Position numbers and translations under genes: made by a program. The notes beneath the pieces were generated by a model that saw nothing but the letters and a program-made list of their open reading frames with translations, was not told where the DNA came from and ran no database searches. Below are positions 15,612 to 35,733 of a DNA stretch of 64,000 nt, piece after piece. Source of the stretch: Botryllus schlosseri (taxonomy: Eukaryota); contig CM119371.1 of the NCBI GenBank assembly GCA_051294905.1, forward strand, positions 496,001-560,000. The letters are read 5' to 3'. The stretch's first letter is position 1. Every line of letters starts with the position of its first letter.

Positions 15612-17075
15612 CTAATTTCGCGACCATCTCAGCAGGATAACATCACAGACTATTCTGGCTAATATACAACACGCTTATCGCAGATCTGCCGCGTGGAACA
15701 CTGATATCACAATTATTGAATTGCAGTTGAATATTAGAGTTAGATCATTTCTAAATGACGTAGTTTCGGCGTTTCAAATAGGGGGGTTCGACCCCCTGTG
15801 GTTACGTGCTGGCACACGCACGTTATCGAAATGAAAGACATCTCTAGCGAGGTCGCATTGAATTACTGGTCACAAATCACATAGGCGTTTGAACATTTTG
15901 TACTAGGTGGTCGACTAGAAAATAAAAAAGGTCAACATTCGCTCAGCTTCCGTATGGTATGGTAACCCGGGTAACCCGACATATCGTGACCCTATGTAAA
16001 ATAACTGCTCAAGTAGAACTGGAAGTAGTCAAACATATTGTCGCCTGAGTAAGCAGCGGAAGTATACAAAATTTATTTCAGTATTCTGGAGAAGTACTGG
16101 TTTGCTAACCCCATCTAATTAAGGAGTCACTTTCATATTTTCAGAATACATGGTTATTATGACAATTTCACTCATAACGGAAAGATGACCACTTGCGTAA
16201 GTACTTGAAGTAAGAAAACTTTATCAACCATATCCATCAATAAACTACTTTTCAGAGTGCAAAATAGGTTTACCGTACCTACTTACATTACTAGCCCAAT
16301 TGGTTTCGATTTTAAGCTAGCCTTTTCGCAAATACACATACTTTTCACGCATTGGATTTCGAAAAGCAGAAATTCAAAAGTAGTCACTAATGATATACTA
16401 CAGAATATCTGCGAAACATCGACTAAAAATACTTTTGAAAACTTTTTACTTGAGTAGTTTCAAGGCCTTACATTTTCTACTTTGAACAGGTGTTTTAAGA
16501 GCTAACTATGCTTGGAATTGTGTATAAATTCAAACCATTACTTCTGCTTGGACTTGATTTGCGACGCACACAACATTAACTACTTCTGCGTATACTCCAG
16601 ACCGACTGGCAATATTATGAACGCAAGTTAAGTAGAAATTAGAAGCACATGTTATAAGTTGAAACTTGCTTACTTACTGCACTGCGCATTCTCTCGTTAC
16701 TAATAATATCCAATTCGATATCTTATAAGATTTTTGCATTATATGGTCTTATTAAAATAACACCATATCCACTCTACTGAAATTGTAATAGCGAGCCATG
16801 AAATGATGCCTTGAACCCCAAAACAAATTGGCCACCTGTAAACTACCCAACCATAATTAATATTAATTCAAGCGCGCACAAGAAATCATTCGGTTACTTA
16901 GTTTTGTTAGATATTCAGGTATTGATTACTGGATTACCTACTGTAAGATGATGAAGTACATTGGAAAGTAGAAGCAAATAGAATAGTGGAATCGGTCACC
17001 CGTGATTCAGAGTTCAAATCCACACCAAACATGAAACTAAATAAATAGCATAAGAAAAATATATCTGCAGCAGAC

Positions 17076-17225
17076 CTTTTTTACTTTATACCCTGATAAC
17101 TCCCGTAAACCAGCCTGCTTGACATACAGTTCTTCAATCAATTTGATATATTCTGCATTGAAGAGATTGATCAAATATTCCACCACCGCGAGGGAAAGAA
17201 CCATTTTGAATGATAGAGTGGATTC
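17076..17225 (-). CDS. NLR-like gene, cassette exon c (copy C), 50 codons
   Basis: ctttattttcacag| ESTLSFKMVLSLAVVEYLINLFNAEYIKLIEELYVKQAGLRELSGYKVKK |gtctgc (weak donor); homologous to copies A and B. Confidence 0.65.
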
Positions 17226-18699
17226 CTGTGAAAATAAAGTGTTGCGAGTGAGGTCACAATCCACCATCAAGAATCCCTAAGATATATGTGTGACTGAAGA
17301 ATTTTATTAACAAAATTCAAAAGAAATATCAATGACTTGCAAACAGATAAATCAAAGTCAAGACGAGAAATTACTCCAACACCTCACACCGTAAGGGTTA
17401 GAATATGATGCCTTCGAAAATTGTCAATTTGGCGCGCCGTCCAAGAAAAATGACCGCCGTACAGAGCACTCGAACACAAACTCAATGAGAAAGCGCAACA
17501 GAATGTACAACGTAGATAATGCACACTAGGAAATTAACTCAATGAAAAATCAATCAAGCAATCATGCCAGTCAGATCGCTTTCGGCTTGCGTATCGTACG
17601 ATCACTCGACGTTCGCTTTACCGTAGTGACTACTACTGCCTACTGCGGGCTAGGCTAAATCGTCGCGTTCTGAGAACATATTTTTTCAAACGAGTCACCT
17701 GAAATAGCGCACATGAACGACGTAACCGCTACATGCATTATATTGATCGAAACTTTTTAGGAAATATATTAGTCCGTCCACATCTATTTTGCGCCAAGCA
17801 TGAAGAAATTTTGGACTCTGCACCTGAATTTCTTCGTCTTGGTCTCTCTCTTCCTCTCTTTGTGGAAGTACATAATACTTCTACTTGATAATTTGTAAAT
17901 ATCGAAAAGTAAGTTGGCAAATCTCAAAATATGACAGAGAACAAGTACAAGTAGAGTGTCGGAAATAGGATTTACTTGTTTAAGTGCTACAAGTACGGGA
18001 GTACTTAAGTACTTCAGAAAAGTAGAAGTAATTGGTCATTGAAAAATTCTGGGTTTGAATCAACAGAATATTTAAATTCGCTTCAACTCTTAATCACCGT
18101 GTCATTTATTGGTTATTTGAATTGATCAAAGCTGAATAACGTTACATTCAAGGCTATTTGATTTAGGTAAACCAAGCAATTCGATTCCAAATCGCATCTC
18201 TTACATCGTTGCTTTAATATATCGAAGCAGAACTTTGTCCAGAATATACGTTGAATGCCCCCCCCCCCCCCACTCCCACACACAATGATTCAGGAAGAAG
18301 CTCTTCGATTATTCAGTGCCAGACTTCGAAATATTTTAAAAAGTTGTCTTGCTTGTTAAAAAAAAACAATGGCAAAAACGCCATCCCTCGATTTAAAATG
18401 ATCGAAAATCCGGGAGGGGATTGAAAATTAAATACAGTGACAACAAAAAATCTTCAAGTTCAGCAGGCTAAAAAATGGCTTATGAAATTATCACAAGCAG
18501 GAAGGTTACTATTCCCTACAAAATTTTCGCGTCTTCAAAACGATCATTATTATGCCATGAGCTACAGATTGGCGATACTACACTGCGAGGTGATCGCTTC
18601 ACGTGCCTAGCGTTGCGTGAAGTCAGTGAAATGATCGAACGTTCAATCCAATCAGAAGTATGGACTCGTTATCTAACTTGATTGATCTTGATATCCAAC

Positions 18700-34636: not shown

Positions 34637-34741
34637 TTCCCAATCCAATTTTCCAGATAGCGATTCAATCCGACGATGCCCGAGAAGTGAACGTAGTTTT
34701 AATACTGAGATGTTGTTGCCATGCAAATCAACTTCCTTTAC
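34637..34741 (-). CDS. NLR-like gene, cassette exon a (copy B), LRR, 35 codons
   Basis: tcgttccag| VKEVDLHGNNISVLKLRSLLGHRRIESLSGKLDWE |gtgaga. Confidence 0.8.
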
Positions 34742-35733
34742 CTGGAACGATTAAATTATTATATGAAACGTTGAAGAGAACTAAGTGAGAAAATAAGTAT
34801 GAAATAAAGTGACAAAAATTAAACTACCAAGCCGTAATCTATCTAGGTTACTGTCGGTGGATCTTCGACATAGCCTAAATTACAAAGCGATATTCCTAGA
34901 TCATGATATCGGTAATATCACATTTTTTTGAATTTTCCCTGCTAAATGGGAAATTTTTATTGGATCAGCGGTTGTTTATACTAGTTAGAATTGAACCAAA
35001 TTTGGGTGCAGAGTTTTTAGGGTAACCTGACGATTTAATCAGTGAAAGACTGGAATCCGGAAAAAAAGCTATTTTTGAACAGCCCTAATGTGCACTAGTG
35101 TTATTATATTATTGTGGCACTCTTTAGCGCCTACTAGCGGATTTCACATCGTGGTATTAACAAAATCTCTGTCAATATGACATCAAACTATCAAAACTTT
35201 TGCCCATACTTACTCAGGGTATATGATAGAAGCTGCGATCACGTTCAACATATTTGTGATCCCTATGATCAAGACAAATGGTTCCAGGCTTAGAACCACT
35301 TTCTTTTTCTAAACCATACAAATGGCTTCAGCTAATTTTAGGTATACACTGTCCTGTTATAATTGCGATTACTATTTGACTTCAGCAAATGATGGTTGCT
35401 TATATTTATTTTCGATTGCATTTTTTCGAGAGAGGCGGCTCCGTATTAAAATTAATACATAATACACTAAATCGAACGCAGTGCGAAAATATTTTAAGTA
35501 TCATAAATCTGCCAATACTGTTTTTTTGATTAGGTAAATATTTTTAATCTGGTTCAAGCCTTCAAAATGCCGGATATTGGGGCGTATTTTAGAGTCCCCC
35601 CCACCCGAAGCAATTTGAACAATGAAGTTCCGAACATGTACGGGGAAATCCGGACGTAAAGCAATCCTAATTTATATCGCAATCCGCAATCCCTACAATG
35701 CACATTGAACGATTCGGTGAGTATCGTCATATT

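Follow-up and report, generated by a model that had tools for sequence, protein, structure and literature searches.

The stretch analysed here (the window) comprises 64,000 nucleotides (nt) of the Botryllus schlosseri genome, positions 496,001 to 560,000 of contig CM119371.1 (C1:496001-560000 below). It is AT-rich animal DNA (GC 35–43%), and its minus strand carries a gene of the NOD-like receptor (NLR) type in which a cassette of three short exons is present three times in tandem downstream of the NACHT exon. The NACHT exon lies in a 491-codon open frame (46218..44746) and gives a clear match to Pfam NACHT (PF05729, E 7e-13; residues 124–292 of the exon, 49.2 bits against a cut-off of 26.7), including the P-loop sequence GSGKTT. 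It is predicted to occupy 44766..46218 and to end in phase 1 at the donor GAAG/GTGAGT after 44766 (a slash marks the splice point throughout). A protein search with this exon, in which 7998 candidates were scored, returned 10 proteins with E 0.001 or better, and the best named relatives are NLR-like proteins of Styela clava and Clavelina (27–35% identity). The closest named relative among the proteins scored is the Styela clava "NACHT, LRR and PYD domains-containing protein 3-like" (P0001, 1100 aa), an NLRP3-like protein that is 35% identical over 96% of the exon. The NACHT domain and these tunicate relatives indicate that the gene is a tunicate NLR, transcribed towards lower coordinates, and the identification as an invertebrate NLR that an earlier note had made from the letters alone therefore holds. 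When three tunicate NLR proteins (P0001 included) were compared with the window by tblastn, the NACHT exon was the only match. Two Pfam models for the part that follows NACHT score below threshold, NOD2_WH with 20.9 bits (cut-off 23.1) and NLRC4_HD2 with 19.6 bits (cut-off 33.1).

Two further exons lie on either side of the repeated region on the same strand. Exon X (37738..38045, 308 nt; acceptor ttgacag/ in phase 1, donor CAA/GTGAGT in phase 0) encodes a helical linker followed by the first motif that resembles a leucine-rich repeat (LRR; LKCLSLSNCSIDDEIL), and by eye the linker aligns with what follows NACHT in the Styela protein. In paralogs (genes B to F, introduced below) X lies 3.4–5.4 kb (B, C, D) or 2.5 kb (F) upstream of the first exon a. 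In paralog L050 (419-985, minus strand) X and a share one 188-codon open frame and are only 54 nt apart, which places exon a directly after X; the 54-nt spacer begins with GT and ends with AG, so that it could be either a mini-intron or a retained in-frame spacer. The terminal exon T (7941..8165; 74 codons and a stop; acceptor ctgcag/ATC, phase 0) sits inside a 102-codon open frame far downstream of the cassettes.

Between X and T, blastn comparison of the window with itself finds three direct-repeat units, all on the minus strand downstream of the NACHT exon: unit 3 (28445..34924, with likeness to unit 1 extending to 35430), unit 2 (22836..27315) and unit 1 (16516..21070). Units 2 and 3 are 84–90% identical in blocks of 0.45–1.7 kb, and unit 1 is 69–87% identical to the other two. 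Exons were located by aligning the conserved minus-strand blocks and then extracting the pieces that are open, and each unit was found to contain an exon a, an exon b and an exon c. In unit 3, which is cassette 1 in transcript order, these are 34637..34741 (a, 105 nt), 32297..32398 (b, 102 nt) and 31143..31289 (c, 147 nt); in unit 2 they are 27028..27132 (105 nt), 25798..25899 (102 nt) and 25103..25252 (150 nt); and in unit 1 they are 20680..20784 (105 nt), 18700..18795 (96 nt) and 17076..17225 (150 nt). All nine have AG before and GT after them, and all nine start and end on codon borders (phase 0). The borders of exon a read ..ttccag/ and /gtgag in all three copies, those of exon b attcag/ and /gttgga, and the donor of exon c is /gtctgc in unit 1 and /gttggt in units 2 and 3. 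A hidden Markov model (HMM) of exon a scored against the six-frame open reading frames (ORFs) of the window finds these three copies (E 1e-25 or better) and nothing else, the next score being 0.37. The exon sizes given in the earlier note (a of 105, b of 96–102 and c of 147–150 nt, in phase 0) were thus recovered, as were exon length differences of 3 and 6 nt alongside introns that differ strongly in length: the a-b intron measures 1884, 1128 and 2238 nt and the b-c intron 1474, 545 and 1007 nt in units 1, 2 and 3, respectively, a two- to three-fold spread.

The predicted gene is therefore best written NACHT - X - (a b c) x 3 - T, with every junction from X to T in phase 0. The donor of X and the acceptor of T are in phase 0 as well, so gain, loss or skipping of a whole cassette should preserve the reading frame. 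Units, exons and the phases of the flanking X and T exons all agree with the proposal that the tail of the receptor was expanded by tandem copying of a three-exon cassette whose borders are all in phase 0.

The cassette is not peculiar to this gene. The genome (495.5 Mb) was searched with each exon, and the best candidates only were scored, so that all counts are lower bounds: at least 114 matches to exon a (123 candidates), at least 28 to exon b (64 candidates), at least 41 to exon c (90 candidates), at least 110 to exon T (128 candidates) and at least 87 to the NACHT exon (212 candidates). In the paralogs checked, T lies 3.5–13 kb downstream of the last exon c. When exon-a matches on one strand within 32 kb of one another are grouped, they form at least 101 loci, 92 with one copy, 5 with two and 4 with three. 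Contig C1 (41.8 Mb) holds 67 of the 114 exon-a matches, and it also holds most of the close NACHT paralogs, many of them in its first 4 Mb and around 39–41 Mb; it carries an NLR-rich chromosome region. These numbers suggest that the a-b-c cassette, about 119 codons in all, serves as the usual tail module in a family that is lineage-specific and has some 100 genes or more, and that triplication is common to a small subclade whereas most members appear to have a single cassette. A search of the tunicate and ascidian NLR literature in a limited library turned up no paper that describes this cassette family.

Five multi-cassette paralogs, B to F, were mapped exon by exon, and for the distant single-cassette paralogs the analysis drew on eight pieces of 0.7 kb and on three complete cassettes. 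Three cassettes are present in each of B, C and E, two in D and at least two in F. Three other three-cassette loci lie on two contigs, and the triplication that the earlier note described is thus not unique to this gene. In gene D exon T follows the second cassette, and there is no further match to a, b or c. Genes C and D have near-identical first and second cassettes, but C has three in total and D two. At C1:1934000-1962000 (L025-L027) and C1:2262000-2291000 (L028-L030), two paralogs have near-identical first and second cassettes, after which one has a third and the other proceeds straight to T. The difference within this pair is either a recent loss or gain of a cassette or a duplicated segment of the assembly.

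Coding status was assessed in a sample of 15 cassettes from 6 genes. AG and GT are kept at exon a and at exon b in all 15, and the donor GT of exon c is likewise kept in 15 of 15. No stop codon occurs in the 45 exon copies (taking c from its downstream acceptor, discussed below), and all exon lengths are multiples of three (a 102 or 105 nt, b 96, 99, 102 or 129 nt, c 147 or 150 nt). Between units 2 and 3 exon b differs at 4 of 102 sites and its flanking introns at 118 of 742 (p 0.0005), and the pooled ratio of nonsynonymous to synonymous differences per site (pN/pS) of exon a is 0.31–0.68. The donors that the earlier note called weak (GTTGGA, GTTGGT and GTCTGC) are present, but GT is kept at b and at c in all 15 cassettes; such donors are a habit of the family and not a sign of regulated skipping.

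Four bulk RNA runs with the same species label were mapped to positions 16000-35999 of the window, 6–13% of each run being read. Between 94% and 99% of the mapped reads fit only in part, so they most probably derive from fragments of intronic repeats. In one run (X19), 4 and 3 reads join the end of an a-type exon to two different b-type starts, at the predicted borders and in frame (letters read by eye). These joints pass through the first two letters common to the intron and exon b, and the first 26–35 letters of the b-type exons are unlike this locus; one of the two is 15 nt shorter and the other is of the same length. They are transcripts of two other members of the family, in which the donor of a and the acceptor of b are used as predicted. 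No RNA dataset was indexed for the NACHT exon.

Maximum-likelihood trees of the a-, b- and c-regions (A1, A2 and A3 being units 3, 2 and 1 of the present gene, gene A) conflict with one another with strong (starred) support. In the exon-a tree A1 and A2 group with B2, B3, C2 and E1-3, and A3 groups with the single-cassette genes and B1, C1 and F1. In the exon-c tree A1 groups with B1, C1, D1, C2 and D2, A3 groups with C3 only, and the single-cassette genes lie far off. The NACHT exon of this gene is separated from those of the paralogs P46, P47 and F by a synonymous difference (pS) of 0.76–0.77, which is saturated, at 58–60% nucleotide identity. Exon a of unit 1 is 91–94% identical to that of P46 and P47, and the 90 nt upstream of it are 87–89% identical; long blocks of the a-b intron are 72–88% identical, exon c is 63–67% identical, and beyond c identity falls to 46%. 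Paralogs with saturated NACHT exons thus still have cassette DNA that is 77–97% identical, the introns among it. Together with the discordant trees, this indicates that parts of cassettes have been copied between distant paralogs in the germline, with breakpoints inside the cassette. One to three cassettes per locus and discordant trees of their parts are the traces expected of unequal crossing-over and gene conversion, and the comparison of paralogs thus supports the unequal crossover of the earlier note; its mechanism finds support as one of germline evolution, to judge from the genomic comparisons.

Taken together, we consider it probable that this is a minus-strand NLR gene of the form NACHT-X-(abc)x3-T in which the standard tail module of the family was duplicated in tandem and its copies were then exchanged. 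Unequal recombination would have duplicated the complete genomic unit in tandem, with its introns (4.5–8 kb), in a small subclade, and since X, a, b, c and T all appear to be joined in phase 0, every gain or loss of a cassette would have preserved the frame. After duplication, gene conversion or unequal crossing-over would have swapped parts among the cassettes as well as among paralogs, an exchange that may have homogenised the introns and exon a and left patches of exons b and c variable. All nine cassette exons of this gene would presumably be spliced into its mRNA, the product would have a longer LRR-like sensor arm, and the exchange may serve diversification. One may go further and propose, tentatively, that a-b-c is an exchange unit of the whole family, in which the 5' half (a, the intron and b) and the 3' half (c) move independently among about 100 paralogs whose NACHT exons diverged long ago, while cassette number changes between 1, 2 and 3. 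The repertoire of sensor arms would thus be reshuffled combinatorially in the germline, and it might differ between individuals or vary by frame-neutral skipping.

A number of results weigh against the interpretation of the gene as a working three-cassette NLR. Exon c has an ambiguous 5' border. In Pfam, no LRR model matches exons a, b, c or T, and a, b and c match no family at all; searches of the PDB with profiles of exons b and c also gave nothing relevant. In the four RNA runs, which are not informative on expression of the gene, no read falls on c3, a2 or c2 and none spans a joint of this locus. The pooled pN/pS of exons b and c is 0.7–1.2 (pairwise values range from 0.2 to 5, on small counts), which relaxed constraint fits as well as diversifying selection. 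Set against its flanking introns in six pairwise comparisons, exon b has diverged further in 2 pairs, less far in 2 and equally far in the other 2. General hypervariability of exon b against its own introns was considered but rejected, as only 2 of the 6 pairs agree with it.

The first of these points allows another reading of exon c. In all three copies the open frame extends 17 codons 5' of the acceptor that the earlier note used (in unit 3 to 31340 and further, in unit 2 to 25429), and exon c might really be about 198–201 nt long, starting 17 codons upstream and encoding an LRR-like strand (LLLVDCDVTDNTL), so that TTTATTTTCACAG/GA would be coding or at most an alternative 3' splice site. 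The 17-codon stretch is open in 27 of 30 family copies, it can be recognised in paralogs whose exon c is only 40–50% identical, and it has a 3-nt indel only, compared with gaps of 1, 1, 1, 2, 3, 5, 11... nt in the 51 nt that precede the open frame. Placed after the 3' end of exon b, it yields the pattern LxxLxLxxCxLT (by eye, against consensus). An in-frame AG stands before the stretch in unit 1 (cttag/GGA, start 17276, 201 nt), the only such copy in this gene, and in the last cassettes of three other genes. However, 11 of the 15 cassettes lack it and have TAT, TTT or a frame-shifting loss of 1 nt instead. Unit 3 has no in-frame AG at 31341 and unit 2 has TAT rather than TAG at 25304-25306; with TAT at this place in both, only the downstream acceptor can be used in frame in units 2 and 3. 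Genes B and E have an in-frame TGA within the stretch although their NACHT exons are intact, and in NACHT gene A and gene B differ by a dN of 0.07 and a dS of 0.21 (nonsynonymous and synonymous substitutions per site). The downstream CAG is the same in all 20 copies aligned, and the residues before it vary and yet remain T-rich, as at a real 3' splice site. In addition, the intron before exon b is equally conserved without coding. With a pN/pS of 0.82 the 17-codon stretch does not stand apart from the remainder of exon c (0.87), and this measure has no deciding power here. On balance the longer exon is possible but somewhat doubtful, and the downstream CAG acceptor is, on these alignments, the likelier one, for units 2 and 3 at any rate; exon c of unit 1 could still be 201 nt long. 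The last cassettes of gene B (L021) and gene E (L036) have the same TTA-to-TGA change in the stretch, the rest of the cassette and NACHT being open. A fusion of b and c was sought in the long open frames of paralogs L050-L052 and none was found; only X and a lie close there (54 nt).

A second alternative is that units 2 and 3 are dead intronic duplicates and that X is followed in the mRNA by unit 1 alone (a1-b1-c1-T), the arrangement of the single-cassette majority. Unit 1 is indeed of the type common to single-cassette paralogs, the pN/pS of b and c is near 1, the donors GTTGGA and GTTGGT are far from consensus, and the 11 of 15 cassettes that have lost the in-frame AG before the 17-codon stretch are all non-terminal ones. 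Against this, the 11 non-terminal cassettes of the 6 genes have no stop in a, b or c, only multiple-of-three changes of length and every AG and GT in place, and exon b of units 2 and 3 is better conserved than its own introns, by the site counts given above. GTTGGA is the exon-b donor of unit 1 and of 12 of the 15 cassettes overall, and so is not a sign of decay. We therefore think it unlikely that units 2 and 3 are dead.

The cassettes could also be used alternatively, by skipping or as mutually exclusive blocks, and so give receptor isoforms from one gene. The X-to-T junctions, all in phase 0, would permit this, and the passages on human NLRP3 in PMC6642158 describe an exon-modular LRR region that is alternatively spliced. 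Positive evidence of any kind is lacking at this locus, and competing RNA pairing elements like those of mutually exclusive exon clusters were not noticed, in an analysis that included no search aimed at them, so alternative use seems improbable. That the triplication is an artefact of assembly has no point in its favour and can be set aside almost entirely, as the earlier note expected: the units differ by 10–30% and have introns of unequal length, likeness of 70–90% is too low for such an artefact, and the three-cassette build recurs at three other loci on two contigs.

If the gene has the NACHT-X-(abc)x3-T structure preferred here, the nature of its tail becomes the next question. The earlier note called it an LRR domain; a likeness at the level of motifs is present in exons X and a, but exon X scores below the Pfam cut-offs (LRR_1 E 0.06, LRR_6 E 0.07). 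Of the ten proteins from the NACHT search, five (P0006-P0010) are matched in their LRR regions by the first 15 positions of the exon-a HMM, four of them at a spacing of 28–29 or 58 residues; the whole-protein E-values of 0.013–0.16 are valid for that 13-protein set only. The best matches of the exon-a profile in the PDB are to the LRR of NLRP1, at E 0.2. By eye, motifs of the LxxLxLxxN type lie at the start of exon a, at the start of exon b and late in exon c, with spacings of about 35, 62 and 22 residues (35, 34, 45 and 22 if the 17-codon extension is included), and so they do not follow the regular 28–29 residue period of the ribonuclease-inhibitor type. For exon c, a search of the ESM Atlas gave no usable match, and a profile run against 1.84 billion protein representatives gave three at E 0.001 or better, of which one is a low-complexity repeat and the other two are short ORF calls, unspliced and continuing into the intron; among these representatives there was no spliced homologue displaying the b/c junction and no Styela protein. 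From these comparisons an LRR nature of the tail is weakly supported, and for exons X and a only.

Other features of the window touch the cassettes less directly. The 261 nt of intron on the 5' side of exon b (25900..26160 in unit 2, also about 18796-19056 and 32399-32656; minus strand) have stops in all three frames, and are 80–94% identical in at least 40 paralog loci scored (109 candidates), which makes them more alike among paralogs than the adjoining coding exons. A comparison of the whole window, this stretch included, with Rfam matched no family, and the idea of a C/D-box snoRNA was dropped because the conservation carries on without a break through the remainder of the a-b intron, and the 261 nt are thus not a discrete element. 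RNA reads pile up at 20002-20668, 24004-24670, 28006-28672, 29340-30673 and 35343-35999, to a depth of up to about 15 in run X19, nearly all as partial fits; these intervals are dispersed repeat fragments within introns that are transcribed elsewhere. At the far end of the window a 509-codon open frame (62472-63998, plus strand) runs past the edge and matches no Pfam family. Inspection of it by eye shows DxE- and NxxxYD-like motifs, which we take to be reminiscent of the exonuclease part of protein-primed B-family DNA polymerases (Maverick/Polinton-type). Two nearby open frames, 61128-62027 (plus strand, rich in Pro, Ser and Thr) and 59763-60395 (minus strand), also have no Pfam match.

Vertebrate NLRs have a repeat unit of one exon, about 171 nt long, that encodes one pair of 28/29-residue repeats. 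The Botryllus unit differs in consisting of three exons (105, about 100 and about 150 nt), of which b and c match no LRR model. In the passages that concern human NLRP3, the modular exons of the LRR region are presented as the precondition for its alternative splicing (Hoss et al. 2019, PMC6642158), and the Botryllus gene resembles NLRP3 in having a repeat region split into exons that can be added or removed in frame. The NLR-B30.2 genes of zebrafish form a very large lineage-specific family clustered on one chromosome, and the passages cited here state that gene conversion differs between NACHT and the C-terminal parts and that the C-terminal modules do not track the NACHT groups (Howe et al. 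2016, PMC4852459). The Botryllus family is similar in its size, in its clustering on one chromosome and in a C-terminal pattern of exchange that is independent of NACHT; however, the exchanged and positively selected module described in those passages is the B30.2 exon (PMC4852459), whereas here it is an LRR-like three-exon cassette of variable copy number. The tail of the Styela protein P0001 is like that of the Botryllus gene in having tandem, near-identical blocks of about 57 residues (by eye, three of one type and five of a second), but these are ordinary 57-residue LRR pairs, unlike the Botryllus cassettes. Fungal NACHT-WD40 (HNWD) genes, on which Paoletti and colleagues worked in 2007, reportedly exchange the C-terminal repeats of their STAND/NACHT proteins (signal transduction ATPases with numerous domains) and vary in repeat number between paralogs through unequal recombination. 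The WD repeats there are intron-free and of very high identity, whereas the units here come from a chordate, bear introns and are 70–90% alike. NLR repeats built of frame-neutral exon modules are thus already known, as are large NLR families moulded by differential gene conversion; what is different here is a three-exon unit of about 119 codons, with lineage-specific sequence and a copy number of 1–3 within one family, in a tunicate host.

Large NLR repertoires of invertebrates are known mostly as gene counts, and diversification of their sensor arms has rarely been resolved at the level of exons. This locus offers a clean anatomy in that respect: a frame-neutral three-exon unit, present one to three times per gene, whose introns are more alike between distant paralogs than are the NACHT coding exons. 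Should neither variation between individuals nor use in splicing hold, what remains would be a tidy case of tandem exon-block duplication and gene conversion in an unannotated immune family. If the exchange of cassette halves across the family is real, it would be the counterpart, in an invertebrate chordate, of the exon-level diversification of zebrafish NLR-B30.2 or fungal NACHT-WD genes. Tunicates are the sister group of vertebrates, and with this anatomy in hand the variation of the cassettes between individuals and their use in splicing become addressable.

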